From Acidobacteriota bacterium (GTDB lineage Bacteria; Acidobacteriota; UBA6911; RPQK01; JADFOI01), in the NCBI GenBank assembly GCA_965218935.1, contig CBDCMH010000013.1, forward strand, positions 12,520 through 76,519: DNA of 64,000 nt, read 5' to 3'. The notes below the pieces were generated by a model that ran no database searches, was not told the origin of the DNA, and was given only the letters and a program-made list of their open reading frames with translations. Position numbers and translations under genes: made by a program. Within the stretch, counting starts at the first letter, position 1. Every line of letters starts with the position of its first letter. Of this stretch, positions 19,263 through 62,618 are shown piece by piece.

Positions 19263-19429
19263 GGACCTGATCCTGAAATAGAATCAGGTCAGCAAACGAT
19301 TGCAATCCGGTTCGTCTGCCATCTTTATCCTTTTATTGTCAAGGTTTTATCCAGATGTAAAAAAGCACCCGGACCTCCTCCAAAAGCCCTGGGTTCAGAT
19401 AGGGTGCAGAAATCACACGCTATTTCCCA

Positions 19430-20894
19430 CCCGTTGCCTCACGTAAAAATCTATTCCAAAGGGTATTCGTTGCCTCACTAAGAATCTATCCGAAAGGGAT
19501 TGCAAAAAGTGGTGGTAAAAAGCACCAACCAGAGGAGTGGCAACCCCTTGCCCAACACCCGCAGCCTGCAGCAAGAGAAAGATTTTCACATCCAGCCCGC
19601 TTCCCATCGTTTCTTCTGCTCAGGAGTCGGTTTGAGCAAAAGGCAATTCTGAAGCCAGCCGATCTGCCGTGCCAGCTGGGCCGGATTGAGCTTCTCATAC
19701 TCTCGGGCCAGTTCCCGCTTGATCTTGTCCGCCACCTCAGGGGACTCGCAGATCCTCCGGTAGGGAGTTTTCGGCACATCATACTTTTTCCAGATCCGAG
19801 ACCCTCGACGTTGCTTGGCCACCATCTTCATGACCGGCTTGAAAAAGTTGATCTGCAGTCGCAGCCGATCGTACAACTCGTTCACCAGCTCCTGTTCTCG
19901 CTCTCCCTCGTAGCGAGCATAACCCACGGCCCGCCGAACCACCGAATAGTTTTTCTGCTCCACATAAGGGTTGTCATTCTTGCGCGAGGGGCGGGTTCGG
20001 CTGAAGCTGATCTTTTCCTGCTCACAAAAACGAATCAAGTGCTTGTTGATGAACTCGCTGCCGTTGTCCGAAGCCATCCCCAGCCAAGGGAAGGGCGAGC
20101 GCTTCTGAAGCAGCTTCATCGCTTCCAGGACCCACACCTGGGCCTTATTGCGCACCGCTCGGACCTCTGTCCAGCCCGTGTACACGTCCGTCACATCCAG
20201 GGTTTGAAGGTAGTCCCCCCGACCCTGGCCTCCCTCATGGCCCACCAGGTCCACTTCCACAAAACCGGGGCGATCCTCCTGCCAGTCGGCGAAACGCTTG
20301 ATCGGAATCTGGTGTTTGAGCAGCGTTCCCGGCTTGGTTCCGGATCGTCCTTTGAGACGGTGCTTGCACCTTTCGGGCTCCAGCAGCCGATCGATGGTGG
20401 CGGCGCTGATCTGCATCAACCGCTCATGGGTGCTGGCATCCACTTTCAGTTCCCCATGTCTTTGTAAAATGGGTACCACTTCCGGCAAAATCGCGACCAG
20501 ACGTTTGCCACACAAATAGTCCAGTATCTCCCAGATCATCGTCAGCGCCTTTAGAACTTTCTGGTCGTATTTGCGGGCCCGCTCTCGCCGTACTCTCTTG
20601 CCGATATCCCCTACCGCCACCAGCTTGGGGCTCAACCGGATCCGCTTGCCCTGGTGGCGAAGCAGATAGGCTCCATAGCAGCGGTTGTAGCCCGTCATTT
20701 GGGTAAACTCCGTCAACACTTCCCCCTTCACCTTCTTGCCCTTCTTCCGGTAGCGGGGGGCAAAACTTTTGATCAATACACGCTTTTCTGCCATCGTTAA
20801 CCTCATTGGTGCCCTCCATTCCTTCATGGAGGACACTTCTATTCCCCTGCTCAGGGCCAGGCAATTTCGAATAGATTTTTGATGAGGCAATTCG
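19430..20894 (-). mobile_element. 1465-bp IS with rve/DDE integrase-type transposase (ISNCY, possibly ISLbi1-like), copy 1
   Basis: Ends CCCGTTGCCTCA...TGAGGCAATTCG; 5-bp target duplication TCCCA (19425-19429 and 20895-20899); near-identical to 61120-62584. Confidence 0.93.
19586..20806 (-). CDS. transposase (integrase core; Rv2807-like)
   Basis: EVDLVGH, SDNGSEF and [14 protein letters not shown] motifs; RBS GGAGG before ATG 20806. Confidence 0.92.
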   Translation of the reverse strand: MRLTMAEKRVLIKSFAPRYRKKGKKVKGEVLTEFTQMTGYNRCYGAYLLRHQGKRIRLSPKLVAVGDIGKRVRRERARKYDQKVLKALTMIWEILDYLCGKRLVAILPEVVPILQRHGELKVDASTHERLMQISAATIDRLLEPERCKHRLKGRSGTKPGTLLKHQIPIKRFADWQEDRPGFVEVDLVGHEGGQGRGDYLQTLDVTDVYTGWTEVRAVRNKAQVWVLEAMKLLQKRSPFPWLGMASDNGSEFINKHLIRFCEQEKISFSRTRPSRKNDNPYVEQKNYSVVRRAVGYARYEGEREQELVNELYDRLRLQINFFKPVMKMVAKQRRGSRIWKKYDVPKTPYRRICESPEVADKIKRELAREYEKLNPAQLARQIGWLQNCLLLKPTPEQKKRWEAGWM

Positions 20895-20899
20895 TCCCA

Positions 20900-20928
20900 T
20901 TGCCTTCATCCCCCTAGGGGCGTAACAT
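20900..20928 (+). promoter_or_regulatory. sigma70-like promoter TTGCCT-N17-TAACAT
   Basis: 17-nt spacer; 35 nt upstream of the kinase ATG; abuts the IS target duplication. Confidence 0.6.
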
Positions 20929-20963
20929 CAACGCAACACTGACAGCTGCATTGCCGGGGAGAC

Positions 20964-21191
20964 ATGATAGGCCAGACCATTTCCCATTACAGAGTCATCG
21001 TAAAGATCGGCCAAGGCGGGATGGGTGTCGTGTACCGAGCCCAGGACACCAACCTGAGCCGCGAAATGGCTATCAAGGTGCTACCGGAGCAATTCACCCA
21101 AGACCCGCAGCGGCTGGCCAGGTTTGAACGGGAAGCAAAACTCCTGGCCTCACTCAATCACCCCAACATTGCAGCCATCTATAGCCTGGAA
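20964..21191 (+). pseudogene. truncated Ser/Thr protein kinase (N-lobe only)
   Basis: MIGQTISHY, GQGGMGVVY, AIKVL and LNHPNIAAIY, then similarity is lost before HRD/DFG. Confidence 0.85.
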
Positions 21192-21371
21192 GCCTGCCGC
21201 CGAATTGCTGCATCTCAGACCGGACCAAGCTGTGCCGCAGGGCTAGGGGACACTTGTGGCCCTCGGGAGGAAATGTTTCCTCCATCAGGTGTTCCGCTGG
21301 AACATGGCCACACCCTAAATTTCAGATTTTTTGACCGTTTCTGCAAAAGGAGAAGTTCAAGGAGGTGAACT

Positions 21372-22594
21372 ATGTGTCATTTTTTCCGCCTTACAATCAT
21401 GACTGGTCTGAGTGCCCCAGCGAGACTAATGGCCTTCCTTTGTCTCCTGATATTAGCAGGCACATTGGGTTGCACAGATAACGCCGTGGGGCCGGGTGCC
21501 ACCTCGGAGCTGACCGATCAGCCAGCAGACGACCTCTCAGAGGTTGGAAACATTGCTCCTATTCGTGTCATCTATGACCGCTACCCGATGTTTGCGGGCG
21601 TAGCGGTAGATCCGGCCTCCAACAAAGCGATCTTTACCGATGACAACACTTTTAGCGTTTTAGAGTACAACCGTGATACACCGGGTAGCCCCGATCGGAT
21701 CACTGAGTTCACCAACAGGATCGGGGGACCTTCAACCAGGATTCATTCCGCCTGCGGCGTCGCTATCGACCCCGAGAATCAGGAAATCTATGTGCTGAAC
21801 ACCGACGGCTCGGATAACATGGTGGTTTTTGGGTACGGCCAATCGGGAGATACAGCTCCGCTCCGGGAGTTAATAGTGGATCACGGAGGTTGGGGAATGT
21901 TCCTGGACCCCAAGAATCATAACGAGCTGTTCTTCACCATTCAGCACCTCAACAAAATTTCGGTGTATCGGCCCAGCGCGGAAGGAAAGGAGGAACCTCA
22001 TCGCTACATCCAGGGACCGAACACGAAATTGGTGGATCCTCATGGAATTTTCGTGGACAGTGTGAATGATGAGATCGTTGTCAGCAACCATCATTCCGCC
22101 CACCAGATAGAGACGGGAGTGGTAGCAGCAACCCTGAAATTTCGTTATCTGCTTCAATCGACAGGACACTATGAGTTGTCTTCCCTCACGGTGTACTCGC
22201 GGACGGCCGAGGGAGATGCAGCGCCACTGCGCACCATTCAGGGGCCAAAGACAAGGTTGAATCTGCCACTGGGAGTGGTTGTAGACACCGAGAGGGACGT
22301 CATTTTGGTTGCCAACGATCAGACCCATGCTGTCCTGGCTTTCGCTCGGACTGCCCAGGGCAACGTGGAGCCTCTTTATACTATTGAAGGACCCGCCACA
22401 GGGTTGAAGAATCCCGGAGCCTTTTACCTTGACGTGGAAAACGATGAGCTTTGGGTGACCAACTGGGGCGACCACAGCGTGACGATTTTTCCCAGTGATG
22501 CCCGAGGCAATGCGACCCCTTTACGGACCATTCGCACTGCTCCGAAGGGGGAGCCTTTGGCGGGCCTGGGCCGTCCCTCAGCAATAGCTTGGGA
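21372..22594 (+). pseudogene. beta-propeller (NHL-like repeat) lipoprotein, 5' part, interrupted by IS3
   Basis: Lipobox TLGC; repeated IxGPxTxLxxPxGxxVD units; ends at the IS left boundary. Confidence 0.8.
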
Positions 22595-22634
22595 TGTACG
22601 TCTTCAGCGAGAATGGGACATTTGGGGTTCCAAG

Positions 22635-23633
22635 CTAAGAGACAGTGGGAACCGATGCTGATCGGGCTAGTTTAGCATTGATCGCCTGCCGACGGGCAAG
22701 GGTGACTCCTTTCAATCTTCTCCTTTTTGTGTGGATGGAATCTCGTCTTGCGAAGTACATGTCATCGGGTGTGACGTTACCCAGGGCCTCGTGATAGCGC
22801 CTGGAGTTGTAGTAGTCGATAAAGACCGCGATTTCTCGCTCCAACTCCTCGGGTGTCTCCCAGACCATTAGGTTGATGCGTTCCTTGCAGGAACGATGGT
22901 AGCGTTCGATCTTCCCGTTGGTCTGGGGATGATAGGGTGAGGCCAGGATGTGGCCCAGTCCCTTGGTCTCCAGATACTGACCAAAGTCTTTGGAGATCAA
23001 AGCCGGTCCGCGGTCTGTCACCAGCCGGGGCCGATCAGACAACGGAGCCTGTTCCACACCCGTTCTCTCACAAGCCGCCTCGACCACCTGGCTGAAGTCT
23101 CCAGCACGCATGGCCGTGTGAAGTCCCCAGGCCAGGATCCTCCGGCTAAAGTCATCCAGTACTGAGATCAGATAGTACCAGCCCCAGTTCTTGACCAGAA
23201 GATAGGTCGCATCCGTTTGCCACTGCTGGTTGGGTCGGGTCGTCTTGATTCGATATTCCGATTCGGCTGGAAAGCTCCGGAGTTGAACCTCCCGAATCAG
23301 CCCTTCCGCTTTCAAAATCCGGTAGACCGAGGATTCCGAGACCGTAAACCCGCACCTATCCGTCACCTGGCAGCTCACTTCTCGTGAGGACCACTCTGGA
23401 AACAGCAGCGCCATCTCCAGGATTCGGTCCCGTTCTTTGGGCAGGATCTGATTCCAAACCCGTCCTGATCCTGGGGGACGGTCCCGCAAGCCTGCCAACC
23501 CCCTCTTTCGAAAGTGGTGTCTCCAGCGATAGTAGGTCGAGCGGGGGATCTCGAGTTGATCCAGCACCTCCCGGACCGGTAACTCGGAGGCCTCCACTGT
23601 CCTTAAAACTTCCAGCTTGTGCTCGCTGAGCAT
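22635..23633 (-). CDS. IS3 transposase OrfB (DDE)
   Basis: WQTDATY, DDFSR, TDRG and HPQTNGKIER motifs. Confidence 0.9.
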   Translation of the reverse strand: MLSEHKLEVLRTVEASELPVREVLDQLEIPRSTYYRWRHHFRKRGLAGLRDRPPGSGRVWNQILPKERDRILEMALLFPEWSSREVSCQVTDRCGFTVSESSVYRILKAEGLIREVQLRSFPAESEYRIKTTRPNQQWQTDATYLLVKNWGWYYLISVLDDFSRRILAWGLHTAMRAGDFSQVVEAACERTGVEQAPLSDRPRLVTDRGPALISKDFGQYLETKGLGHILASPYHPQTNGKIERYHRSCKERINLMVWETPEELEREIAVFIDYYNSRRYHEALGNVTPDDMYFARRDSIHTKRRRLKGVTLARRQAINAKLARSASVPTVS

Positions 23634-23979
23634 CCTCTGATACCTCCTTCGCCTTACAGGCCCAAACTTTTTTTAGCTTTTGGTTCTCCACTACCGTCTC
23701 GGCCACCGCCTTCTTCAAGGCCTCATTCTCCTCCTTTAAGCGACGCACCTCACCGGAAGTCGCATTCCGTTGGGTCTCCCGGGTTAGACCGTTTTTGCCC
23801 GAATCCAGGAAGGCCTTGGACCACTTGTAGTAGATCGAAGGTTGAATCCCTTCTTTGCGGCACAGTTCGGTGACGGGAATCTCTCCGCGGAGCCCCTCCA
23901 AAACGATGTGGATCTTCTCTTCGGCCGTGAATCTCCGGCGGGTGGCCCTACGGATCTGTTTGACGACGTCTGTGGTCAT
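23356..23979 (-). CDS. IS3 transposase OrfA (HTH + leucine zipper); true end probably near the A-run at about 23670
   Basis: RRRFTAEEKIHIVLEGLRGE...ELCRKEGI...YYKW; A7G run after LKK. Confidence 0.85.
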   Translation of the reverse strand: MTTDVVKQIRRATRRRFTAEEKIHIVLEGLRGEIPVTELCRKEGIQPSIYYKWSKAFLDSGKNGLTRETQRNATSGEVRRLKEENEALKKAVAETVVENQKLKKVWACKAKEVSEDAQRAQAGSFKDSGGLRVTGPGGAGSTRDPPLDLLSLETPLSKEGVGRLAGPSPRIRTGLESDPAQRTGPNPGDGAAVSRVVLTRSELPGDG

Positions 23980-24135
23980 AGCGTTCTCCTTTTGGTTGTG
24001 CCATGACCAGCATCGGCTTGCTCTGATGGGCTGTCAAGATCAGCCCTTTGAGGGGGTGAGATCTCACCCCCTCAAACCTTCCAACTCTCTCTTAACTCTC
24101 GGCCCTATGTGTCCCACTTTCGCTGACGGGATACA

Positions 24136-24601
24136 GCTGAGAGGACCAAAGACGCTGTTGCTTGATCCCTATCGGATCGCGGTAGACGGCGCGAATAATA
24201 TCCTTGTGATTGCCAACCGAGATCCTGCCGGCTTTCTGATTTTCGATCGGGATGCTGAGGGCGACGTGGCTCCTCGGGCTATCATCTCAGGTCCCAGCAC
24301 CGGCATCTATGGCAACCCTCAACAGATCCAAATGGATCCTGAGCGGAAACAATTTATTGCAGCAATTCCGGGGCGCCGACCTCCTGAGGAAGGCGCTGAG
24401 CGCGAACCCGGATTCGTTGGTGCCTGGAACTATACTGACGATGGAGATGTCGCACCGACGCACGTCATCCGAGGGTCCAGGATACAAATGACTTCTCCGC
24501 GAGGACTTGATTTTAACGCCGAAGCGAAAGAACTCTATATTGCGGACTTCGGGCAGAATAAGTTGTACGCTTTCTATGCTCCCCATTTTTTTGAAGAATA
24601 G
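24136..24601 (+). pseudogene. beta-propeller lipoprotein, 3' part
   Basis: LRGPKTLLLDPYRIAVD, IISGPSTGI and IRGSRIQM are the same repeat units as in 21372-22594. Confidence 0.8.
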
Positions 24602-24688
24602 GAGGCTCCGCGTTGCATGACATTGTGATAGGGGAACCCGATGTGTCTGTGAGCCTCCCCACTGTCGGACCGCGAGAAGGTAGGATGC

Positions 24689-24931
24689 CTAGGCTTGGCG
24701 GTTCTGCTTCTGGCTTAACTCAGCGGTTACTTTCTGAATCGCCTGCTGTACGTATCGTTCTGTTAGGACATTAGGCCGCCGGACTTTTCCGCTAGCGTAC
24801 CGGTAGAGAGTGGTGTGCGACGGACCCTCGTGGGCCATCACGCGGTGGAACTCGCGGCACATCCTTTCCCAGCTCCAAGACGTCTTCGCCCTGAGGCGGA
24901 GCAGTCGCTTACTGAGTGTTTCCTCTCTCAT
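24689..24931 (-). CDS. small HTH (XRE-like) DNA-binding protein
   Basis: 80 aa; LRLRAKTSWSWERM...SHTTLYRYASGKVRRP helix-turn-helix-like pattern. Confidence 0.55.
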   Translation of the reverse strand: MREETLSKRLLRLRAKTSWSWERMCREFHRVMAHEGPSHTTLYRYASGKVRRPNVLTERYVQQAIQKVTAELSQKQNRQA

Positions 24932-24932
24932 A

Positions 24933-24948
24933 ATATATATATATATAT
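24933..24948. repeat. (AT)8 dinucleotide tract
   Basis: ATATATATATATATAT one base upstream of the HTH start codon. Confidence 0.9.
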
Positions 24949-25098
24949 GAAAACAAGCTGAAAGTGGTCTTACGGTACCGTCGCCACAGGACTGTTCTGG
25001 GGGGCGTATAGGGTACAGAAAGTGCGGTTTTCTTCCGCGTCTCGCAACTGCAAGTTATTGAAAGTCAGTAGGAACGGGGCTGTTATTATAAAATAGGA

Positions 25099-25305
25099 TC
25101 AGGTTACTGGCCTCGGAAAGGGCCGGCGTTTCTTGCGCGCACGCTTTCTTGCCAGCGCTTGTTTCAATCGGCGCTTTTCTCCAGGTTTCAGGTAAAAGGC
25201 ATGCCTCTTGGCATCTCTGATGATGTCTTCGTGCTGCACCTTTCTCTTGAAACGCCGGAGTGCGCTCTCAAGGGACTCACCGTCTTGTACAAAAACTTCA
25301 GCCAA
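25099..25305 (-). CDS. rpsU: 30S ribosomal protein S21
   Basis: ESLESALRRFKRKV...FYLKPGEKRR. Confidence 0.95.
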   Translation of the reverse strand: MAEVFVQDGESLESALRRFKRKVQHEDIIRDAKRHAFYLKPGEKRRLKQALARKRARKKRRPFPRPVT

Positions 25306-25331
25306 CTCTTTTCACTCTCCTTGCAGGGGGA

Positions 25332-25361
25332 ACTATAAGGGACGCTTTCTTGCTCTGTCAA
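25332..25361 (-). promoter_or_regulatory. sigma70 promoter of rpsU (TTGACA-N18-TATAGT)
   Basis: Near-consensus hexamers upstream of rpsU. Confidence 0.65.
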
Positions 25362-25363
25362 GG

Positions 25364-25484
25364 TAGCCCGGTTTATGCATAGGTTCTTGTAACGAAGCGA
25401 CGAAAACCACGTCCTGACAAGGCGCACGACGGAAGGCACCCGCAAACGTACTAGCAGTAGAGAATCTATGCATAAGCCGGGCTA
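25364..25484. repeat. MITE/REP-like family A copy
   Basis: TAGCCCGGTTTATGCATAG...CTATGCATAAGCCGGGCTA. Confidence 0.88.
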
Positions 25485-25497
25485 ACCCTATTGCGGA

Positions 25498-26325
25498 TCA
25501 ACGGCCAGCAAAGCGTTGTGGGTCATAAACTCTCGCCTTGTTCTCCAGACGCTTGAGCAGATCTTCCTTTTCTTTGGTAGGGTATTCGGAAGTTGGAATG
25601 CTCTCGGCGACCTCGATAGCCTTCGCCAACTCGCCCAAAAACTCATAACTTTCAATGAGTCCCAACCGCGCTGTGCGGCGACAATCATCGCATTCCGGCC
25701 CTTCTAACACCTGATTGAAGTAATCCACCGACTCTTCAAACTGGTTTTGAATCTGGAGGATAATTCCCGCTTGAGCTCGAGCCCTTGCCGCCAGCGGATC
25801 ATTGCTTCCATCCTCCATCAACAGCTGAAACTTTTGAAAGGCCTCATCAAATTGGTTCATTTTGAAATGTGCGCCTCCCATCTCAAAATAGACCTGGCGG
25901 CGAACCTCCAGCGGCACATCAAGGGCAAGAATCTGACTCCAATAATCGATGGCCTGAGGTAAATCGGTCAGTTCTAATTCATGAATCTCGGCTAGCCTTA
26001 GATAGGCCTGAGGAGTCAAGGAGCTGTCCGGATATTGGGTCACAAGCTCACGAAAGTAGTGCAGGGCAAGATCAACATTATAAAAATTGATGTAATAGAT
26101 GGTCCCGACTTCGAACAGGGCATCGTCTGCATACCGGCTTTTGGGGTAATTCTTATAGACGGATTCATAGATCTCGATGGCCCCCATGTAGTTGGTTTCA
26201 CGCCACTGCCGCTGGGCACGAAGAGCTTGTACTCGTGCTTCATTTTCCGTCTCAACGTAGAGCCAGACGGCACCGGAGAAAAGCAGAAAAGGGATAGGGA
26301 GAATCCATTGAAGTCTACTGTTCAT
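25498..26325 (-). CDS. membrane-anchored TPR protein
   Basis: N-terminal TM segment; [11 protein letters not shown] and [10 protein letters not shown] BamD/YfiO-like TPR motifs. Confidence 0.8.
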
Positions 26326-28771: not shown

Positions 28772-28787
28772 TTCTTCTTTCTCCTTC

Positions 28788-29064
28788 TAGTGTCTCGTCC
28801 CAGGAATACAATGACGTTTGTGGCGAGCGCGACGGCGTCGAGTTCGCGAAGCAACGACGACGTGATGTCTGTGTGCATCGCGGAGAAGGAGCGACAAAGA
28901 AATCGATGCCGTCCCGCCGCCGCCCTTCGGGCTAATGGGGGTTGCGGGAGATCTCTGTGTCTCTCGTCGTCGCCGATGTCCCTGCATCACCTCCTCCTCG
29001 CTCCTTGATCTTCCCTCCCAAGCCCCATCAGCAAACGTCATGGTATTCATGGGACGAGATACTA
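28788..29064. repeat. MITE-like family B, longest copy
   Basis: TAGTGTCTCGTCCCAGGAATACAATGACGTTTG...CAAACGTCATGGTATTCATGGGACGAGATACTA; lies between gyrB and gyrA. Confidence 0.88.
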
Positions 29065-29097
29065 TAGCCCGGATGATGCATAGAGAGTTCGGGCTAG
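29065..29097. repeat. family A remnant
   Basis: TAGCCCGGATGATGCATAG...CGGGCTAG adjacent to the family B copy. Confidence 0.75.
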
Positions 29098-29104
29098 TAG
29101 CGGG

Positions 29105-31543
<2,439 letters not shown>

Positions 31544-47967: not shown

Positions 47968-48058
<91 letters not shown>

Positions 48059-48100: not shown

Positions 48101-48826
48101 AGGGTCGGGGGGACTACCTTCAAACCCTGGATGTGACGGACGTGAAAGCGGTGCGCAATGGGGCAGCTAAGGCCCAGGTGTGGGTCCTGGAAGCGATGAA
48201 GCTGCTTCAGAAGCGCTCGCCCTTCCCTTGGCTGGGGATGGCTTCGGACAACGGCAGCGAGTTCATCAACAAGCACTTGATTCGTTTTTGTGAGCAGGAA
48301 AAGATCAGCTTCAGCCGAACCCGCCCCTCGCGCAAGAATGACAACCCTTATGTGGAGCAGAAAAACTATTCGGTGGTTCGGCGGGCCGTGGGTTATGCTC
48401 GCTACGAGGGAGAGCGAGAACAGGAGCTGGTGAACGAGTTGTACGAGCTGCGACTGCAGATCAACTTTTTCAAGCCGGTCATGAAGATGGTGGCCAAGCA
48501 ACGTCGAGGGTCTCGGATCTGGAAAAAGTATGATGTTTGATCTGCGAGTCCCCTGAGGTGGCGGACAAGATCAAGCGGGAACTGGCCCGAGAGTATGCTC
48601 AATCCGGCCCAGCTGGCACGGCAGATCGGCTGGCTTCTCAAAACTCCTGAGCAGAAGAAACGATGGGAAGCGGGCTGGATGTGAAAATCTTTCTCTTGCT
48701 GCAGGCTGCGGGTGTTGGGCAAGGGGTTGCCACTCCTCTGGTTGGTGCTTTTTACCAACTTTTTTCCCTTTCGGATGATTCTTAGTGAGGCAACGAATAC
48801 CCTTTGGAATAGCGTGAGGCAACGGG
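48101..48826 (+). mobile_element. degenerate third copy of the 1465-bp IS (5' 668 bp missing, many small indels)
   Basis: Matches the reverse complement of 19430-20226; ends ...TGAGGCAACGGG. Confidence 0.92.
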
Positions 48827-49658: not shown

Positions 49659-49705
49659 AGTGTCGTAGGGAGTTCCGGGCCTGTCCCTGAACTCCCTACG
49701 ACACT
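49659..49705. terminator. inverted repeat (family C-related) at the end of the lipid operon
   Basis: AGTGTCGTAGGGAGTTC...GAACTCCCTACGACACT. Confidence 0.55.
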
Positions 49706-51270: not shown

Positions 51271-51284
51271 GGTTTTGTCTCGGT

Positions 51285-52466: not shown

Positions 52467-52472
52467 ACTAGC

Positions 52473-53672: not shown

Positions 53673-54367
53673 GAGGTGCGTTCTTTCTTGCTTTCTTCAA
53701 GATCCCAGATAAGGATTTCCCACTTTTTCGCCCGAGCAATTTTTCGCAGTCGTCTTCCTGGGTTCACGACTCTGGCATATCCAACGGTTTCCAGCATCGG
53801 GATATCGTCCAGGCTGTCCGCATAAGCATAACACCTCGATAAATCCAGCTGGCGGTCCTTACTGAATGAAATAATGGCCTCGGCTTTGCTCTGATCGGTC
53901 AGCGGGCCTCCCTCCAGCTCACCCGTGAAAACGCCGCCCTTCTGACGCAAGCGCGCCGCGATCATCGCTGAGGCCTGAATCCGATTGGCCAGCGGCTTGA
54001 CCAGAGTCTCGAGAGAGTTGGTCACCAAAACGATCAGGTCGTTGCTTTCCTGGTGCTTTCGCAGCTGATCAAGGGACCCCGGGTAAATGCAAGGTTGCAT
54101 GAGTGCTCGAAAGTGATTCTCGGCCAAACCATCCAGCTGGGTCGGGCTCAGGTTTGTATAGTTGCGATAGAAGGCCTGGCTGAAACAACGGCGGCTGAGA
54201 GCATCCAGCAACAGGTAATAAGGGACCTTGGGAAGAAATAGGGTGATCCAGAGAGCCTTTTGCCACTCTGTCATTTCGCAGGTGCGCAGGTAGGCATAGT
54301 AGCGAACGACGTTTCCCTGGACGATTGTGCCATCGACATCAAAAAAGGCAGCCGCCTGGCCAGTCAT
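53669..54367 (-). CDS. HAD-IB family hydrolase
   Basis: FFDVDGT, K and YADSLDDIPML motifs. Confidence 0.9.
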   Translation of the reverse strand: MTGQAAAFFDVDGTIVQGNVVRYYAYLRTCEMTEWQKALWITLFLPKVPYYLLLDALSRRCFSQAFYRNYTNLSPTQLDGLAENHFRALMQPCIYPGSLDQLRKHQESNDLIVLVTNSLETLVKPLANRIQASAMIAARLRQKGGVFTGELEGGPLTDQSKAEAIISFSKDRQLDLSRCYAYADSLDDIPMLETVGYARVVNPGRRLRKIARAKKWEILIWDLEESKKERTS

Positions 54368-54385
54368 AGGAATCCCTTCGCCTTC

Positions 54386-57300
54386 TCAGTGCCTCACCGC
54401 CCCGGTGGCCAAACCCTTGGCAAGACCTGAAATGGCGGTGCGCACCTGAGCCGCAATCTGCCGATAGCGCTCGTCGAGTGCAGTTCGTGGGCCTTCTGGA
54501 GGAGAAGGCTCCACCCGGATTCCCGGGGCGAAAAACACTCCTATTCCTCGGCGGCGAGGGAAGGCTTTTCCCACAGGCATGGCCGGGTGCGTCCCCTGAA
54601 TATAGGCTGGAACAACCGGCACCCCCAATTCCAGCGCGATTAAGCCGACGCCCGGTTTAAACTCCTGCAGTTGGCCCGTCCGCGAACGGGTCCCCTCCGG
54701 GAAAATGAGCACACATTCGCCGCCCAACAGAATGGATTTCACCATCCGCAACCCCGCCAGTGAGGTTTCTTCCCTTTCAACGGGCACTAAATTCAAGAAT
54801 GTGCTGAAGAACCAGCTTTTCAGGGCCGTGTCGAAAAAGTAATCTCTTGCCCCTAAGATGTGCATTTTTTGGGCCTCTTGAAGGCCCAACACGGCGCTCA
54901 CGGCGGAGATCATTGCCCCCCCATCCAGATGGCTGGCATGATTGGCTGCAATGATGTAGGGACCGGCGGCGGGGAGGTGTTCCTGGTTGTACACTTTCAA
55001 GCGAAAATACTTTTGGTACACCAATCTAAGAGCTCGGTAGCTGCTGCTGAGCAACCAGCGCTCGGTGGGCGAGCGCTCCCCATAGGGCCGAGCTGAGCGA
55101 ATCTTACTCGTCCTTGCCCCTTTTCTCTCCGCTTTCCGGGCCTGGGTTGGGGCTTGGGGGCGGATTTGCTCAAGAAGCTCTCCCGCAGTTTGTAGCGTTG
55201 CCGCCACCTGATCGGAAACTGAGACCCCGAACTGATGTTCGGTAAACAAGAGAAGCTGGATGCTCATCAAGGAATCTAACCCTAGGTCTGAGTAAAGATG
55301 GCTGTCTTCCCTGATTTCCTGGGTGGGGATGCCTGATAGCCGGCTGAGCTCTCTGAGCAGCTCTTCTTCTTGGCTTCCCCCCCTGCCGGGCTGTGGCGGC
55401 AAGCCTTCGGCAGAGCGTGCTCGGTCATGCTGAAGCTCTTCCAGGAGCTTACGGCGGGCGGTCTCTCTGCAAACCTCCCCCGAATCGTTCCGGGGCAAGG
55501 GCTCAAACCAAACATGGATATGTTGGAGCCGATGATAGCTAGGCAATTCCTTTCCGATCCTTTGAATCTCTTTCTGAATCTCCTTCTTAACCTCGGCCTG
55601 GTCGCTCATTGCCGACCGGCCCAGCGCGGGCGTCAAAACGGCGTGGATGTCTTCCGTGAGCCCGCTTTTTATCCCCAGAACGCAAATCTCCAGAATGGCT
55701 GGGATGCTTTGGTATATGGCTTCCAGGTCGGCGGGGTAAACATTCTTGCCCGCCCCGGTTACAATGACGTCTTTGATTCGTCCGGTGACGTACACATACC
55801 CATCGGCATCCACCCAACCCAGATCACCGGTATGAAACCAACCGTCCTTGATCACGGCTTCCGAGGCGGAGGGGTTATTGTAGTAGCCTTTCATCAAGCT
55901 GGGGCTGCGGGCGATGATCTCGCCAATGCCGTCCTTGTCGGAGTGAAAAATCCTTATCTCCACACCCGGAAGAGGCTTCCCTGCTGAGCTCTTCCTGCTG
56001 CGCTGTAGGGGATTGACGGTAAGGACGGGGGCGGTTTCCGTCAGGCCATAGCCTTCGTAGATCGGCATGCCCAGCACTTTGAACTCGTCATAGAGCTTTT
56101 CCCCCAACGCGGATCCCCCGCTTACGAAAAGTCTGATTTGCCCCCCGAGCTCCTGGTGTAGCCGGGAAAACAGTTGCCGGCCGATGTTCTTGCCGAGTTT
56201 GCGCTCCACCGATAAGCTCACTTGTTTCGAGGTGTTCGGGAAATTCGGCTTAAGGGCTGATTTAGGCTTTCTCAAAATACGCCGCTCAATGTCATCCCGA
56301 ATCAACGCGTAAAGGGTAGGAACTCCCAGCATGCAAGTCGTTCCTGTTTCTTGCATCGATTCAAGAATCACCTTCGGTTTGAGTGAATGAACGTACGTCA
56401 CCGTGGCGCCACCGTAAATAGCCATCAAGAATCCGCAGGTGAATTCCAGGGCGTGGGACAGAGGAAGCACCGAAAGAAGCTGATCGTTCTCCGATACCGG
56501 TAAGTGGTGATTGACCCCCAGCAAGTTGTTGATGAAGTTGCGATGGGTGTGCAAGGCTCCCTTGGGATCAACGGCAGTGCTGTTTGTGAAGATAATCGAA
56601 GCCAAATCGTCAGGTTTCACCTCAGCCTTTTCCTTGGGTGTGGTTTCTTGGCGGGGCGGTTGGGTGCTGCGCGAATATTCCTTTCGCTCAAAGGGCAGAC
56701 AGCACCGATCGACGTTCAGTAATCTCACCGGAGATTGCGACTCTTCGTTTTCCTTTAAGGCCTTTGAGGCAAGTCTGGCCAGGCAGTATTCGGACGCGAG
56801 CAGCGCCCGGCTTTGTGTAAACCGCACCACCGCCCAGACCTCTTTGTGCCACGTCTGTGCATCCAGCGGCACAACGACTACCCCTACCGAGGCTGCCCCA
56901 AGGTAGGTGGATCCCCACTCCGGCGTGTTTTCCGAGTAGAGGGCCACACGGTCGCCCTTTTGCAGCCCCATCTTCAAAAGAGTCTGTCCTATTTTCTGAG
57001 CCCCAGCGTGGAGGTCTTTATAGGTGAATCTCTGCCAGTAGCCCTCACGCTTGATCTGGAGCGCCGTTTTGTTTGGGAACCTCTCGGCGGCTTGCTCAAC
57101 AAGGGTATTAATGGTGAGCGCATCCGAAGAGGCTGCGTCTTCCACCGACAGGGTTCCAGCTCCTTCCAGCTTGAGGACGTGCTTCTTGACACCGGGGATG
57201 TGTACGTTCTGGATATAGTGGCGCCAGTTCAATTGCTCAATGTCAAAGTTGAGGAGTTCCTTTTCCTCTGCGTTGAGTGAATTGAAAAGCTGCATCGTGT

Positions 57301-58762
57301 TGTCTATCTCGAACCGGCAATTCAAGTTCAGGTAGGGCCGGTAGATCTCTCCATAGTAGTAGAGCTTGTCGTAGGCCAGCTTGGCGGCAGAGATTTTCCG
57401 CTTAACTTTTTCCGTCCTGTTGGAAGGCGGTAGGTTTCGCAAAGTATGCGCCGCCGCCTGGAGAGGGACAGTCTTCAGCTTGTGCTGCAAGCGGAAGGTG
57501 CTTTGCTTGGGGAATTTAAGAGGCTTGACGTGGATGGCCTCGCCACGCCGGTCCAGCATGGGATTCTTCTGGAAGTATTCGTAAACAAGCGAATGGAGCT
57601 CCCCCAGCGTGACCGGGTTCTTGGCGCCAGTTGCCACGTGATACACCTTCACCCCACCCTCCTCTGCCGCTAGGGGTATGGTGGCCAACAGCGCATTGAC
57701 CACCAGGTCGACCGGGACCAAGTCGAGAATCACGTCAGCGTCCAGGGGCAACGACCGGAGACGGCCTTTGCCGATGGCTACGATGAGAGGGTCGGCCATC
57801 CGCAGTCCGTCCAGCCATCCAGGGGTCGGCTCTGCGAGGCTGCTTTCAATGACCGACGGGCGGATGACGACAGTGGGAACTCCGTTCCTCCCTCGGAGAA
57901 CCATCTGCTCGCCCAGCGCCTTCGTGTAGGTGTAGGTGTCGTTCCAGCCCCGCTGGCGCGCCCGGCTCATACCCTCTTCGGTCAAGCGGCTCTGCGCCCA
58001 CTTCTTCCGCAGGCTCTCAAGCTTGGCGGCACGAGTCCTCCCCTTGCCCCCTCTCCGGGGCTTGCGCAGTTCTCTGAGAAGTCCTTCCCTCGTCTTCGGG
58101 CCTCGCGATGCCTCTTCAACTTGCTTAATCGTTTTGCGGATGTGTTCTATCTCTTGCGCAACATCGTTAAACTTCCCCTGTGGGTGCGGCTGTTCCGCTT
58201 CTGAGCCAGCGGCTGAATGATAGATGGTCTCAGGGACGGAGTAGCTGGCGGTGCCGCTTACATAGGCCGTAGAGACATGAACCAGCACTGCCTTCTTGCA
58301 AGAGCTGGCGAATTCGGCGATGCGGCCGGCACTCAAAACATTCACTTCAAGGGCCTCGTCCAGGGGTGCATCGAATGAAACAACCGCGGCGCTGTTAATC
58401 ACGATGTCGACCTCGCCCTGGAGCCGGCTTCGAGAAGCCTCGTCCAACCCCAAGCCCTCCTGAGAGATGTCGCCCGAAACCGCGACGAGTTTCTCTTCAA
58501 GAAAGGCCTTGCTCTTATCCCCGTAGGAGCGGTAAAGCCGGTCGAAAACATCGGATTGAAACAGCTCCCGGGTCAGTCGCTCTTGGGCGGACATCGCCTG
58601 GCCGCCTAGTTGCGCCCTGGGGCGGATAAGAAGATAGATCCGCTTTATGCTGGGAGCGATTCTTAAGATTTTCTCCACAAGGGGTTGCCCTAGAAACCCA
58701 GTGGCCCCGGTGATAAAAATCGTTTTGTGCTCTAAGGCGTCTTTGATCCTATTCATGCCCAC
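54386..58762 (-). CDS. multidomain fatty acyl reductase / AMP-binding / ACP / acyltransferase (ElbD-like ether-lipid synthase)
   Basis: TGATGFLG and YTYTK (reductase), YGLTE and TGD (adenylation), DLGLDSL (ACP), NHASHLD and FPEGTRS (PlsC-type acyltransferase). Confidence 0.88.
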   Translation of the reverse strand: MGMNRIKDALEHKTIFITGATGFLGQPLVEKILRIAPSIKRIYLLIRPRAQLGGQAMSAQERLTRELFQSDVFDRLYRSYGDKSKAFLEEKLVAVSGDISQEGLGLDEASRSRLQGEVDIVINSAAVVSFDAPLDEALEVNVLSAGRIAEFASSCKKAVLVHVSTAYVSGTASYSVPETIYHSAAGSEAEQPHPQGKFNDVAQEIEHIRKTIKQVEEASRGPKTREGLLRELRKPRRGGKGRTRAAKLESLRKKWAQSRLTEEGMSRARQRGWNDTYTYTKALGEQMVLRGRNGVPTVVIRPSVIESSLAEPTPGWLDGLRMADPLIVAIGKGRLRSLPLDADVILDLVPVDLVVNALLATIPLAAEEGGVKVYHVATGAKNPVTLGELHSLVYEYFQKNPMLDRRGEAIHVKPLKFPKQSTFRLQHKLKTVPLQAAAHTLRNLPPSNRTEKVKRKISAAKLAYDKLYYYGEIYRPYLNLNCRFEIDNTMQLFNSLNAEEKELLNFDIEQLNWRHYIQNVHIPGVKKHVLKLEGAGTLSVEDAASSDALTINTLVEQAAERFPNKTALQIKREGYWQRFTYKDLHAGAQKIGQTLLKMGLQKGDRVALYSENTPEWGSTYLGAASVGVVVVPLDAQTWHKEVWAVVRFTQSRALLASEYCLARLASKALKENEESQSPVRLLNVDRCCLPFERKEYSRSTQPPRQETTPKEKAEVKPDDLASIIFTNSTAVDPKGALHTHRNFINNLLGVNHHLPVSENDQLLSVLPLSHALEFTCGFLMAIYGGATVTYVHSLKPKVILESMQETGTTCMLGVPTLYALIRDDIERRILRKPKSALKPNFPNTSKQVSLSVERKLGKNIGRQLFSRLHQELGGQIRLFVSGGSALGEKLYDEFKVLGMPIYEGYGLTETAPVLTVNPLQRSRKSSAGKPLPGVEIRIFHSDKDGIGEIIARSPSLMKGYYNNPSASEAVIKDGWFHTGDLGWVDADGYVYVTGRIKDVIVTGAGKNVYPADLEAIYQSIPAILEICVLGIKSGLTEDIHAVLTPALGRSAMSDQAEVKKEIQKEIQRIGKELPSYHRLQHIHVWFEPLPRNDSGEVCRETARRKLLEELQHDRARSAEGLPPQPGRGGSQEEELLRELSRLSGIPTQEIREDSHLYSDLGLDSLMSIQLLLFTEHQFGVSVSDQVAATLQTAGELLEQIRPQAPTQARKAERKGARTSKIRSARPYGERSPTERWLLSSSYRALRLVYQKYFRLKVYNQEHLPAAGPYIIAANHASHLDGGAMISAVSAVLGLQEAQKMHILGARDYFFDTALKSWFFSTFLNLVPVEREETSLAGLRMVKSILLGGECVLIFPEGTRSRTGQLQEFKPGVGLIALELGVPVVPAYIQGTHPAMPVGKAFPRRRGIGVFFAPGIRVEPSPPEGPRTALDERYRQIAAQVRTAISGLAKGLATGAVRH

Positions 58763-59633
58763 CCCCGGTCGGGGCTATGATCTTAATTGCCCCCCTGAGA
58801 GCTTTTGCGTTGACTGGGGTCTCCCCATAGATATCTCCGTCGAACACCTTTTTTAAGCTTACCGGGGTGTCGATTTTAACCGTCTGGGATCGGTACAAGG
58901 AGAATTTTGGGTGTTTGAGGTGGTGACCGCTATAAATTTTCGGGAAGTTGAGCAGTAAGTCCGCCTTCCCAATATCACCCACCACAACCACGTCAAACAG
59001 GCCGTTGTTCGTCTGGGCCGCCGGGGCCATAAGCAAACCGCCGCCGCAATACCGCGTATTCTGAACTAAGATTGAAGTGCAGTTTAGGTCTAAAGTTTCC
59101 TCATCCAGCGTGATACTCATCGGGACCGGTTGTAGCTGGGTGATGGCTTTGTAGGTAGCAATAAAAAAGGCGCTGGGGCCTTTTAGGTATTTCATTTTAT
59201 TTGTTTCATTGGCTATGATCGCTGGAAAACCGAGCCCTAAAGTGGAAATAAAGCACCGTTCCCGCTCCCAGCCCACATCAATCTCTAATACCTCCCCTTT
59301 GAGAATCACTTCTATCGCCTTTTCTGGATTGTTGTAAGGGAGGCCGAGGCTTCGCGCTAAGTCATTCCCGGTTCCAATCGATATAATCCCAAGCTCTGTC
59401 CCAGAATTTACTGTAGCGTTAACAACCTCAGAAATCGTCCCGTCGCCGCCGAAAACGATTACCTGGCGCTCACCTGCCTCAACAAGGCGCTGGGCTAGTT
59501 CTGTGGCGTGGCCTCGGTGCCTCGTCTCGAAAATTTCGTGCTCTGCCTCCCTGGCCCGAAGGATTGATTGGAGTCCTTGAGCTGCACGTCTTCCTCTCCC
59601 GTGCCCGGCGGTCGGATTGGCTATGATCTTCAT
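58749..59633 (-). CDS. diacylglycerol kinase-family lipid kinase (YegS/DgkB-like)
   Basis: NPTAG, GGDGT, GTGNDLAR and DGD motifs; start taken at ATG 59633. Confidence 0.9.
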   Translation of the reverse strand: MKIIANPTAGHGRGRRAAQGLQSILRAREAEHEIFETRHRGHATELAQRLVEAGERQVIVFGGDGTISEVVNATVNSGTELGIISIGTGNDLARSLGLPYNNPEKAIEVILKGEVLEIDVGWERERCFISTLGLGFPAIIANETNKMKYLKGPSAFFIATYKAITQLQPVPMSITLDEETLDLNCTSILVQNTRYCGGGLLMAPAAQTNNGLFDVVVVGDIGKADLLLNFPKIYSGHHLKHPKFSLYRSQTVKIDTPVSLKKVFDGDIYGETPVNAKALRGAIKIIAPTGGGHE

Positions 59634-59715
59634 CCCCACACAAAGCTGAGTATAACGAGGAGGGCTATATTCAGCCAAGAGAAAAGCTGCAGTAGGGTGA
59701 TATAATCCTGCGCCG

Positions 59716-59814
59716 GGAGGTACTCCCTGTCTGGTGACGGGCCTGGTCTTCAAAACCAGTCGGGCTGCAACGAGAGTTGTGGTTGGTGGGTTCGATTCCC
59801 ATGTACCTCCGCCA
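59716..59814 (+). tRNA. selC: tRNA-Sec (TCA)
   Basis: 8-bp acceptor stem GGAGGTAC/GTACCTCC, anticodon arm CTGGT-CTTCAAA-ACCAG, long variable arm, CCA; extended -10 TGATATAAT just upstream. Confidence 0.93.
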
Positions 59815-59867
59815 ATGGAGGTTTCTTGTTGTCTGCTCGTACTCCGGATTTAAGTGAGTTATTTCTT

Positions 59868-60112
59868 TAGTAGTAGTAGTAGTAGTAGGTGTGTGTTTTG
59901 TTGAAAAAAGGAGCAGGCTATATAAAATAAAGGTGTTTAGTGAGTGGATAATTATGTGAATAAGAGACCCAGGATAAACAGTGTGGCAAGAGAGCGGTAA
60001 AAAAGGATAGGAAGCAAAGGAAATCCGCGCACTTGTTGGCCGCGCACGTGTACGGAATTAGGCTAAGCAAAGTTAAGAAAGCAAGATGCATTGTCCAGGA
60101 GTCTGTGGAAAA
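59868..60112. other. candidate replication origin oriC
   Basis: (TAG)7 at 59868-59888 next to tandem boxes (reverse strand TTTTCAACA and AAACACACA); further boxes TTATCCACT (59943), TTATTCACA (59955) and TTTTCCACA (60104); AT-rich. Confidence 0.75.
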
Positions 60113-60187
60113 GCGGTGAGGTATAGCCCGCGCAACCAGGTTTTACCGACACCCCGCCCAACCCAGCGGTAGAACCTCGAGCCAGTT

Positions 60188-61036
60188 ATGGCGAAAGAAA
60201 TCACGGTCGCAATTCAAGGAGAGCGAGGGTCTTACAGCGAGGTAGCAGCAGCGCACCTATTAAGGAAAAAGATGGAGCTCTGGTGCTGCGAGCGCTTCGA
60301 GGAGGTTTTCAAGGTCACCGCGAAAAAAGACACCCAATACTGCCTCGTCCCCCTCGAAAACTCTCTATCCGGGTCGATCCACAAAAACTACGATCTTCTG
60401 TTGCGGCACAAACTCAAGATCACCCGCGAGATCAATCTTCAGATCGAACACAACCTAATCACTGCGCCCGGTGCACACCTCGACGAAATCACCACGGTGC
60501 TTTCCCACCCCGTCGCCTTGGATCAGTGCGACAACTTCTTTGAGAAGTTTCCTCACCTGATTAAGCGCAGTGCCTACGACACCTCGGGCAGCGTCAAGCG
60601 CATCGTGGAAGAAAATCTACGTGATTGCGCTGCCATTGCAGGAAAGCAAGCCGCTGAGTACTACGGCGGCAAGATTGCGCTAACCGGAATTCAAGACAAC
60701 AAAGAAAACTTCACTCGATTCGCCCTGCTTGCCCGGGAACCAGAAACAGGCAAGAAAGCAGATAAAACCTCGATCGCTTTCAGCTTTGGAAATGCGCCCG
60801 GAGCCCTTTTCAAGTGCCTCAGCGTCTTCGCCTTGCGAGAGATCGATCTTACCAAAATCGAGTCTAGGCCTATCCATGGGCGGCCGTGGGAGTACCTTTT
60901 TTATCTGGACTTTCTAGGAAACACTGACCAGGAAAGCATCCAAAGAGCGCTGGATCACCTGAGGGAGCTCACCGAGTTCCTGGAAGTTCTCGGCTGTTAT
61001 CCGCGCGACACCAGCCAGCAGAAGAAGGGGATGTAG
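60188..61036 (+). CDS. pheA: prephenate dehydratase
   Basis: QGERGSYS, PLENS, NFTRF and LTKIESRP motifs; ACT domain. Confidence 0.93.
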   Translation: MAKEITVAIQGERGSYSEVAAAHLLRKKMELWCCERFEEVFKVTAKKDTQYCLVPLENSLSGSIHKNYDLLLRHKLKITREINLQIEHNLITAPGAHLDEITTVLSHPVALDQCDNFFEKFPHLIKRSAYDTSGSVKRIVEENLRDCAAIAGKQAAEYYGGKIALTGIQDNKENFTRFALLAREPETGKKADKTSIAFSFGNAPGALFKCLSVFALREIDLTKIESRPIHGRPWEYLFYLDFLGNTDQESIQRALDHLRELTEFLEVLGCYPRDTSQQKKGM

Positions 61037-61119
61037 GGGGCCAGCCCAAGAAGAGGCTCTGAGGGGAGGGGCGGACAAGCCCTAGGGTTTGGGGTTCGCC
61101 TCAAGCCACTTCGGTAGAG

Positions 61120-62584
61120 CCCGTTGCCTCACGTAAAAATCTATTCCAAAGGGTATTCGTTGCCTCACTAAGAATCTATCCGAAAGGGATTGCAAAAAGT
61201 GGTGGTAAAAAGCACCAACCAGAGGAGTGGCAACCCCTTGCCCAACACCCGCAGCCTGCAGCAAGAGAAAGATTTTCACATCCAGCCCGCTTCCCATCGT
61301 TTCTTCTGCTCAGGAGTCGGTTTGAGCAAAAGGCAATTCTGAAGCCAGCCGATCTGCCGTGCCAGCTGGGCCGGATTGAGCTTCTCATACTCTCGGGCCA
61401 GTTCCCGCTTGATCTTGTCCGCCACCTCAAGGGACTCGCAGATCCTCCGGTAGGGAGTTTTCGGCACATCATACTTTTTCCAGATCCGAGACCCTCGACG
61501 TTGCTTGGCCACCATCTTCATGACCGGCTTGAAAAAGTTGATCTGCAGTCGCAGCCGATCGTACAACTCGTTCACCAGCTCCTGTTCTCGCTCTCCCTCG
61601 TAGCGAGCATAACCCACGGCCCGCCGAACCACCGAATAGTTTTTCTGCTCCACATAAGGGTTGTCATTCTTGCGCGAGGGGCGGGTTCGGCTGAAGCTGA
61701 TCTTTTCCTGCTCACAAAAACGAATCAAGTGCTTGTTGATGAACTCGCTGCCGTTGTCCGAAGCCATCCCCAGCCAAGGGAAGGGCGAGCGCTTCTGAAG
61801 CAGCTTCATCGCTTCCAGGACCCACACCTGGGCCTTATTGCGCACCGCTCGGACCTCTGTCCAGCCCGTGTACACGTCCGTCACATCCAGGGTTTGAAGG
61901 TAGTCCCCCCGACCCTGGCCTCCCTCATGGCCCACCAGGTCCACTTCCACAAAACCGGGGCGATCCTCCTGCCAGTCGGCGAAACGCTTGATCGGAATCT
62001 GGTGTTTGAGCAGCGTTCCCGGCTTGGTTCCGGATCGTCCTTTGAGACGGTGCTTGCACCTTTCGGGCTCCAGCAGCCGATCGATGGTGGCGGCGCTGAT
62101 CTGCATCAACCGCTCATGGGTGCTGGCATCCACTTTCAGTTCCCCATGTCTTTGTAAAATGGGTACCACTTCCGGCAAAATCGCGACCAGACGTTTGCCA
62201 CACAAATAGTTCAGTATCTCCCAGATCATCGTCAGCGCCTTTAGAACTTTCTGGTCGTATTTGCGGGCCCGCTCTCGCCGTACTCTCTTGCCGATATCCC
62301 CTACCGCCACCAGCTTGGGGCTCAACCGGGTCCGCTTGCCCTGGTGGCGAAGCAGATAGGCTCCATAGCAGCGGTTGTAGCCCGTCATTTGGGTAAACTC
62401 CGTCAACACTTCCCCCTTCACCTTCTTGCCCTTCTTCCGGTAGCGGGGGGCAAAACTTTTGATCAATACACGCTTTTCTGCCATCGTTAACCTCATTGGT
62501 GCCCTCCATTCCTTCATGGAGGACACTTCTATTCCCCTGCTCAGGGCCAGGCAATTTCGAATAGATTTTTGATGAGGCAATTCG
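61120..62584 (-). mobile_element. 1465-bp rve-type IS, copy 2
   Basis: Same ends as copy 1; 5-bp target duplication TAGAG (61115-61119 and 62585-62589). Confidence 0.93.
61276..62496 (-). CDS. transposase (integrase core)
   Basis: Identical to the 19586-20806 product except I>T, D>N and P>L. Confidence 0.92.
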
Positions 62585-62589
62585 TAGAG

Positions 62590-62618
62590 TTGAACCGAAG
62601 CGGTAAAGTTGGTACCAT
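62590..62618 (+). promoter_or_regulatory. sigma70 promoter of the rpmH operon (TTGAAC-N17-TACCAT, extended -10 TG)
   Basis: 17-nt spacer; 40 nt upstream of the rpmH ATG; abuts the IS target duplication. Confidence 0.7.

Follow-up and report, generated by a model that had tools for sequence, protein, structure and literature searches.

What determines where an insertion sequence (IS) lands, when two of its copies lie, base for base, against the promoters of two different genes? The question is raised by a 64,000-nucleotide stretch of DNA (hereafter the window) from an Acidobacteriota bacterium, namely positions 12,520 to 76,519 of contig CBDCMH010000013.1, which belongs to a 3.36-Mb assembly of 13 contigs (GCA_965218935.1). 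A preliminary description of the window had proposed that this IS selects its target by position relative to promoter-bound RNA polymerase rather than by sequence. We examined the ends of the IS in the window, in the whole genome and in related elements from other genomes and metagenomes, and the result leaves hardly any doubt that insertion is promoter-registered and oriented.

The first intact copy in the window occupies positions 19430-20894 on the minus strand (it served as the BLAST reference, 100%) and is bounded by the target-site duplication TCCCA at 19425-19429 and 20895-20899. Its transposase gene (19586-20794, minus strand) encodes 402 amino acids from an ATG, within a frame that is open to 20890 from a TTG. 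The right-hand duplication is followed, with no gap, by a promoter-like sequence on the plus strand (20900-20928) consisting of TTGCCT (20900-20905), a 17-nucleotide spacer and TAACAT (20923-20928), and a Ser/Thr-kinase-like open reading frame (ORF) starts downstream at 20964. The second copy (61120-62584, minus strand; 99.8% identical with the first) lies between two TAGAG pentamers (61115-61119 and 62585-62589), which in relatives are represented by a single TAGAG, and carries an intact transposase gene (61276-62484, minus strand; 399 of 402 residues identical with copy 1). Here the right-hand duplication directly precedes a second promoter-like target on the plus strand (62590-62618), composed of TTGAAC (62590-62595), a 17-nucleotide spacer and TACCAT (62613-62618). 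This promoter presumably serves the 46-amino-acid ORF at 62659-62799 (plus strand), which we take to be rpmH, encoding ribosomal protein L34, from an earlier identification and its typical MKRTFQP... start. In both intact copies the transposase is encoded by a minus-strand gene that points away from the promoter, whose core remains intact. Direct reading of the sequence thus confirmed the coordinates that the preliminary description had given for copies, duplications and promoter hexamers, as well as the gapless arrangement and divergent orientation that it had reported for both copies.

About 60 pieces of the IS were detected in the genome by BLAST. They include 51 promoter-side ends, which yielded 49 unique flanks after two duplicate flanks had been dropped. 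Counting outward from the IS, so that the duplicated pentamer takes +1 to +5, T was found at +6 in 48 flanks, T at +7 in 39 and G at +8 in 39, and the complete TTG was present at +6 to +8 in 31 of the 49. Farther out, T, A, A and T occurred at +29, +30, +33 and +34 in 31, 37, 36 and 34 sites, respectively. A TAnnnT hexamer was found 16-18 nucleotides after the first hexamer in 41 of 49 flanks (a spacing of 17 in 29 sites, 18 in nine and 16 in three), as compared with 1.8% for the TTGs of the genome as a whole and 5.1% (213/4204) for those lying outside any ORF of at least 100 codons (binomial P about 2e-45). When flanks were scored against TTGACA/TATAAT, 40 of 49 sites matched at 8 or more of the 12 positions, versus 0.41% of random positions. 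The preliminary description had also held that the target pentamers start with T, which was not sustained in the larger set: the first duplicated base was A in 7, C in 18, G in 12 and T in 12 of the 49 flanks, and +5 was T in just one. The conserved T is at +6, where it opens the -35 hexamer; the duplicated pentamer itself has no conserved first base.

It is the -35 side of the promoter that fixes the register, with the -10 hexamer 16-18 nucleotides farther on. A search for TTG together with TAnnnT across offsets 1-40 gave a lone peak at +6 (23 of 49 genome flanks), with no or one site at every other offset. The 5-bp duplication spans promoter positions of about -40 to -36 and borders immediately on the upstream side of the -35 hexamer; the core promoter is kept intact. 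The orientation is equally regular, since it is the transposase-proximal end that abuts the promoter, with the transposase gene divergent from it. At the transposase-distal end, the genome flanks gave zero signal besides the duplicated bases, and a score of at least 8 of 12 was reached at only 1 of 51 flanks of this end, read outward.

The same pattern was found in other sequences. Genome contigs and metagenomes were scanned as arbitrary samples, and all counts from them given here and below are among the matches listed. The metagenome scan, whose search pattern lay wholly inside the IS end and was blind to the flank, listed at least 80 loci; 75 of them had at least 45 nucleotides of flank, and all 73 unique flanks were counted. 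T was present at +6 in 65 of these, TTG in 56, TAnnnT at a spacing of 16-18 in 60 and both in 49, all 49 of the latter falling in the lone +6 peak of the same offset search. The consensus is TTGACA-N17-TAtAaT, and 60 of the 73 sites scored at least 8 of 12. The transposase reads away from the flank in 42 of the 42 loci holding a transposase (median identity with the window protein, 53%), and none of 34 candidate distal ends faced a promoter-like sequence. Same-genus and same-order relatives display an identical junction pattern. A less strict scan of genome contigs listed 13 loci with a TTCG tip, of which 12 had T at +6 and 11 had the -10. Groups with CAGG, TACG and CACG tips represent transposase-distal ends, as the gene reads toward the tip in every member with a match; because of this they serve only as distal-end controls, and the -10 was found in 0/10 and 0/7 of these other-tip groups.

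Could such a distribution arise if insertion were random or only weakly biased and selection then spared the copies that leave genes and promoters intact? Insertions in genes would be purged, and an intergenic site ahead of a promoter may well do no damage. However, selection of this kind predicts no single-nucleotide register: a position at -45 or -60 should be at least as harmless, yet other offsets hold no or one site each. It also fails to account for the frequency of the -10 hexamer, which follows just 5.1% of ORF-free TTGs, for the fixed orientation, and for the recurrence of the same register in unrelated metagenomes. This explanation is barely credible and was rejected.

A second explanation, toward which the preliminary description had pointed by noting that the copy 1 flank resembles the end of the IS, is that the -35 hexamer is mistaken for the IS-end motif (TTGCCTCA). 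For some elements, such as IS911 and IS30, insertion beside sequences similar to their inverted repeats has been reported. In the present element, TTGCCT lies 4 nucleotides from the IS tips, so that insertion creates an inverted pair (AGGCAA-N9-TTGnCn) at the junction, and the repeatedly hit kinase promoter family has TTGCCT as well. Moreover, one metagenomic junction (L148) lies against what seems to be another family member's distal end (CCTGTTGCCTCAC), not against a promoter. Against this, the target consensus is TTGACA and not TTGCCTCA (A in 52 versus C in 12 at +9, and A in 38 versus T in 18 at +11), there is no CA at +12/+13, and the -10 signal (41/49 in the genome, 60/73 in the metagenomes) is left unexplained. 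Mimicry of the IS end is thus very improbable and was likewise rejected.

More distant relatives were also analyzed. In Micrococcaceae elements whose transposases are about 41% identical, 19 unique proximal junctions had T at +6 in 16, TTG in 6 and TAnnnT at a spacing of 16-18 in 13 cases, with TAnnnT starting at +29 in nine sites and at +30 in four. Spirochaete relatives (34-44% identity) have TTGACA or TTGACG at +6. Judging from these flanks, promoter targeting is found in several phyla and extends to relatives with protein identities as low as about 34-41%. Accordingly, what the preliminary description had predicted for a larger set of sites (TTG at +6 to +8, a TAxxxT hexamer about 17 nucleotides after the -35 and a single orientation) was observed in the genome and the metagenomes, and the -10 and the orientation were observed at the actinobacterial junctions too. 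It had named the lack of enrichment at a fixed offset, a random orientation and a preference for TTG alone as outcomes that would speak against its proposal, and none of these was seen; the strength of the -10 signal argues against a preference for TTG alone.

What reads the promoter? We consider it somewhat probable, from the make-up of the target sites, that the reader is RNA polymerase holoenzyme or its sigma factor. At the 18 genome sites without TTG, the -10 was canonical and in register in every case, versus 23 of 31 sites with TTG; compensation of this kind resembles that in functional promoters and points to the polymerase as reader, because all non-TTG sites keep the -10. The metagenomic sites had an extended (TGn) -10 in 6 of 11 non-TTG cases versus 10 of 49 TTG cases. 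The spacer varies between 16 and 18 nucleotides, as in natural promoters, with TTG fixed at +6. That the target consensus is TTGACA, as opposed to the IS-end motif, is a further point in favor of the polymerase. Actinobacterial promoters have a weak -35, and the Micrococcaceae sites keep the -10 register with a weak -35; the logo follows the host, which again argues for the polymerase.

That the transposase would be recruited by promoter-bound holoenzyme, through sigma region 4, the C-terminal domain of the alpha subunit or the beta flap, is a proposal for which we see the chances as even. According to this proposal, the target-capture complex would not read the promoter alone; it would dock on promoter DNA that RNA polymerase holoenzyme occupies and bends, at the place used by class II activators, beside the alpha C-terminal domain and sigma region 4. 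The resulting asymmetric protein-DNA platform would set both the position and the orientation of insertion. The landing site would be a low-cost one, and if so, this would explain how the IS has reached about 50 copies (about 2% of the 3.36-Mb genome) and why its copies vary between populations. A complex prediction for the transposase alignment (A1) with the alignment of sigma70 region 4 (A2) gave a score of 0.02 (mark, 0.32), which speaks neither for nor against binding.

The principal alternative is direct readout, in which the transposase or a target-capture domain would recognize, on naked DNA, T or TTG beside the cut and TAnnnT about 23 nucleotides farther on. The structural model of the transposase contains two N-terminal helical domains of helix-turn-helix (HTH)-like type, and TTGCC occurs within the transposase's own binding sites. 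Other properties of the target sites are at odds with it: the 18 non-TTG genome sites all hold the exact register to a canonical -10, the spacer is flexible (16-18) in a sigma70-like manner, the information profile, in which the A at the second and the T at the sixth position of the -10 are strongest, is that of functional promoters, and the logo shifts with the host, the -35 being weak in Micrococcaceae. In addition, a profile comparison of the transposase with sigma region 4 revealed no relationship (hhalign probability, 0.35%). On balance we regard direct readout as unlikely.

Another possibility is that the polymerase is required without being contacted, the transposase preferring a bend or distortion of the DNA upstream of the -35 (brought about by holoenzyme or intrinsic) together with T at +6. 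Such a preference fits the same positional data, and the fold-related DDE integrases, namely prototype foamy virus (PFV) and human immunodeficiency virus (HIV) integrase and IstA, favor bent target DNA. Since the orientation is strict (42/42) and the other end has no signal, an asymmetric cue is needed; a bend offers little asymmetry, though T at +6 could. We therefore hold this explanation to be quite improbable.

Several observations weigh against the polymerase as reader, or restrict how far promoter targeting extends. The extended -10 showed no enrichment at non-TTG sites in the genome itself (2/18 versus 2/23). The T at +6 is nearly invariant (48/49 in the genome, 65/73 in the metagenomes and 16/19 in Micrococcaceae), which is more than would be expected for the first base of a -35; as it adjoins the strand-transfer position, the transposase may itself read this base. 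At two or three genome sites, a good TTGACA or TTGCCC is accompanied by no recognizable -10, which would also fit direct reading of the -35, and about 10% of the metagenomic sites are not promoter-like. The identification of the target as a sigma70/sigmaA-type promoter draws on sequence, conservation and gene context. In the phylum Bacteroidota, relatives with 35-40% identity were present in 12 of 401 genomes searched, and five of six TTCG-tip junctions (L356, L364, L366, L367 and L357) have A at +6 and no recognizable promoter, the remaining one having TTGACT-N17-TATATT at +5. These relatives may form a clade without promoter targeting, or the promoter type of their hosts may differ. Furthermore, three ISLbi1 insertions inside coding regions of Leptospira biflexa are described in the available part of PMC2229662. 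Because of the Bacteroidota junctions and these coding-region insertions, promoter targeting is a trait of large clades of the ISLbi1 group, to which the element is assigned below, and not of the group as a whole.

The ISBj12-like relatives (L074, L077, L036, L008 and L301) were considered separately. They have the same sequence of about 24 nucleotides (containing TGATTGTCGC) after a TGAGGCAA-type repeat at both ends, and their true ends probably lie farther out. We considered TGATTGTCGC as another target and rejected it, as its presence after both ends of L074 indicates that it is probably the element's own sequence.

The features of the target that suggest a sigma70-type promoter are a TTGACA-like -35, a spacer of 16-18 nucleotides, a TATAAT-like -10, a gene downstream and a conserved sequence block. 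Conservation could be followed at the rpmH site, which has no IS in four same-genus genomes and there reads as a single TAGAG followed by TTGAAy-N17-TACCAT; across these genomes, the promoter block is the best-conserved part of the intergenic spacer. Among 20 downstream ORFs tested, 12 had Pfam families, including MraZ, PilZ, amidohydrolase, symporter and an IS3-type OrfA, and one further site precedes a putative tRNA, recognized by a look at the sequence only. An ORF was found downstream of 31 of 49 sites versus 36% of random positions, a test that is crude in a GC-rich genome. In the case of the OrfA (HTH_Tnp_1), the target (genome G000, C1:12078-12464) is a promoter-like sequence that precedes this gene of another IS. 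Four sigma factors of the genome score above the cut-off of the RpoD C-terminal model (G000 C11:273858-274568, C7:298922-299608, C11:439348-440058 and C7:35719-36405).

One type of promoter has been hit repeatedly. The kinase-promoter family TTGCCT-N17-TAACAT carries the IS at an identical position at five right ends (four unique flanks) in the genome. The right flank of copy 1 equals that of a copy in contig 1 for 204 nucleotides and diverges afterwards, and the left flanks of the two are unrelated. Paralogous kinase genes share this promoter and a leader (TTGCCT-N17-TAACAT, then a CAACTGCATTGC-like sequence), and several of these genes have received independent insertions at one and the same base; the loci are window 20895-21100, G000 C1:17494-17698, and C7 at 308537, 547448 and 566445. 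A similar promoter is also occupied in a genome of another family (L003).

Occupation of the rpmH site also differs between sequencing runs. In contigs of two runs from two studies (X3 and X4) the site is empty, with position 61113 joined to 62584 and 1470 bases skipped, equal to the 1465-bp IS plus 5. A third run (X1) carries both junctions of the occupied site. The IS copies differ between populations. In runs X1, X3 and X4, the contig depth summed over the IS of copy 2 was about 50-250 times the depth of the flanks; in run X6 it was only about 5-30 times, and the left flank had no cover. This excess over flank depth suggests that the IS is present in many copies in those samples as well. 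Another IS variant, about 90% identical, was observed in run X1.

As for the element itself, the length of 1465 bp given in the preliminary description is true of the window copies, whereas the usual element is 1500 bp long (39 of 46 paired genome copies; an example is C1:12464-13964). The 1500-bp form has two subterminal repeats holding TTGCCTCA at each end, with differing tips (CCCG and CGAA), and these repeats are the transposase sites. Copy 1, whose tips are CCCGTTGCCTCA... and ...TGAGGCAATTCG, has two such repeats at the transposase-distal end (19430-19505) and one at the promoter-side end; the window copies are without the second 35-bp subterminal repeat that the 1500-bp form has at the latter end (regions 20860-20894 and 62550-62584 of the window). 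Because the short copies retain 5-bp duplications of their own, a single promoter-side repeat may suffice for transposition, or the repeat may have been lost later by slippage. Exact 5-bp duplications flank 25 of the 46 paired copies. The other 21 have no matching duplications, and at least three of their orphan pentamers (GTCCC, CTTCA and TCTTC), compared by eye, re-pair across distant loci, a sign that recombination between IS copies has probably caused many rearrangements. In the transposase of copy 2, an Asp-to-Asn substitution (D92N) affects a column that is invariant in 54 homologs (D96 in alignment numbering), and this enzyme may be impaired.

Each element contains one transposase ORF and no second credible gene; an AAA+ target-selection gene of the Tn7, Mu or IS21 type was sought within the 1465-1500 bp and was not found. 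Pfam recognized only the rve domain (PF00665) in the transposase, at 33.9 bits versus a cut-off of 32.6, and the DDE triad typical of this domain is invariant (D186, D247 and E283 in alignment numbering). An AlphaFold model (predicted local distance difference test score, 76) begins with an HTH-like domain at the N terminus, continues with another helical domain, an RNase-H core and a small beta domain, and ends in C-terminal helices. The top Foldseek matches of this model were PFV/HIV integrase and IstA (E about 5e-6), which are generic folds only, and a sequence search of the PDB with the transposase alignment gave no match at E ≤0.01. By tblastn against plasmids, the transposase is 42.2% identical over residues 6-391 (96%) to an ISNCY-like ISLbi1 family transposase (E 7e-92) and 39.5% identical to an ISBj12 family transposase. 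More than 8000 transposase homologs were scored, mostly on short contigs. In ISfinder, elements of the ISLbi1 group are about 1.4-1.5 kb long, with a single ORF and a 5-bp target duplication, and the present element agrees in all three respects. On these sequence features, it is a single-gene DDE (rve) IS of the ISLbi1 group of ISNCY. Two other families were considered and rejected: the NCBIfam model for IS481 scored 44.6 bits versus a cut-off of 224, and that for IS3 scored 28.1 bits versus 160, the element having a single long ORF and not two frameshift-linked ones.

A third copy of the IS in the window is degenerate and truncated (48101-48826, minus strand; IS positions 1-797, 89.7% identity). 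Its distal tip at 48826 adjoins TCGGT, and its truncated side is fused to ACAAT, producing TACAAT 43 nucleotides before a tRNA-Ser(GCT) gene (47969-48058, minus strand; ARAGORN). The preliminary description had placed this copy in the same orientation at the tRNA-Ser promoter. The orientation and the position upstream of the tRNA gene are as claimed; the copy is, however, a remnant without the -35 region and so cannot be scored for register.

If the proposed mechanism is true, insertions of this widespread family would mark polymerase-occupied promoters in uncultured bacteria and supply a promoter marker obtainable from sequence alone, the build-up of the IS in a 3.4-Mb genome at low cost would be explained, and a tool consisting of one protein, able to place DNA immediately upstream of promoters, would suggest itself. 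Since the promoter is severed from upstream regulatory sites, an insertion could also rewire regulation.

How does this compare with known systems? Target-specific transposition in bacteria is known for attTn7, REP (repetitive extragenic palindromic) sequences, XerCD sites and RNA-guided targets. Searches of the full text of openly available papers, supplements excepted, gave no description of a bacterial IS inserting in register with the -35 box or of a target preference for the ISLbi1 group. The present case is thus target-specific transposition with an unprecedented target, and it could represent a new mechanism for bacteria. An association of single IS copies with promoters is familiar from IS5 upstream of fucAO and glpFK, IS186 in the lon promoter and the hybrid promoters of IS1, IS2 and IS30. 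These cases are single hot spots, attributed to sequence or structure preferences or to selected activation, and have no genome-wide single-nucleotide register to the -35 in which the promoter stays intact. IS copies at or near promoters are also reported in the available part of PMC11894529.

The closest formal relatives are those of the ISLbi1 group (ISLbi1 of L. biflexa and ISBj12 of Bradyrhizobium), which have a homologous transposase, a single rve/DDE ORF and a length of about 1.5 kb; ISLbi1 differs by its three reported insertions in coding regions (PMC2229662, available part). According to the portion available of a preprint (bioRxiv 10.1101/2022.12.17.520857), the IS1202 group, an ISNCY-labelled rve-type IS, targets XerCD (dif-like) sites and so likewise lands beside the binding site of a host protein. 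As far as that text goes, its target is a recombination site on plasmids, whereas here it is a generic housekeeping promoter with hundreds of potential sites per genome. Tn7 and other bacterial transposons guided by host factors also find their target through a host protein-DNA complex and not by a simple sequence; in Tn7, TnsD acts at attTn7 and TnsE with the sliding clamp. Tn7-type elements, however, employ dedicated targeting proteins and an ATPase, whereas the element described here has one gene and targets promoters.

A further likeness is to eukaryotic elements. Ty3 integrates at start sites of RNA polymerase III (Pol III) through TFIIIB, and Ty1 as well as Tf1 of Schizosaccharomyces pombe, the latter at Pol II promoters, similarly spare coding sequence. 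In these elements, too, an integrase-type enzyme acts at a fixed position relative to the transcription machinery, and position and orientation are also fixed here (offset +6 only; 42 of 42 loci). Ty3, Ty1 and Tf1 are long terminal repeat retrotransposons whose tethering factors have been shown experimentally, whereas the present element is a bacterial DNA transposon with a putative tether. Should that tether be real, the IS would present the first case in bacteria of tethering like that of Ty3 and Tf1, and would offer a bacterial model of integration directed by the transcription machinery.

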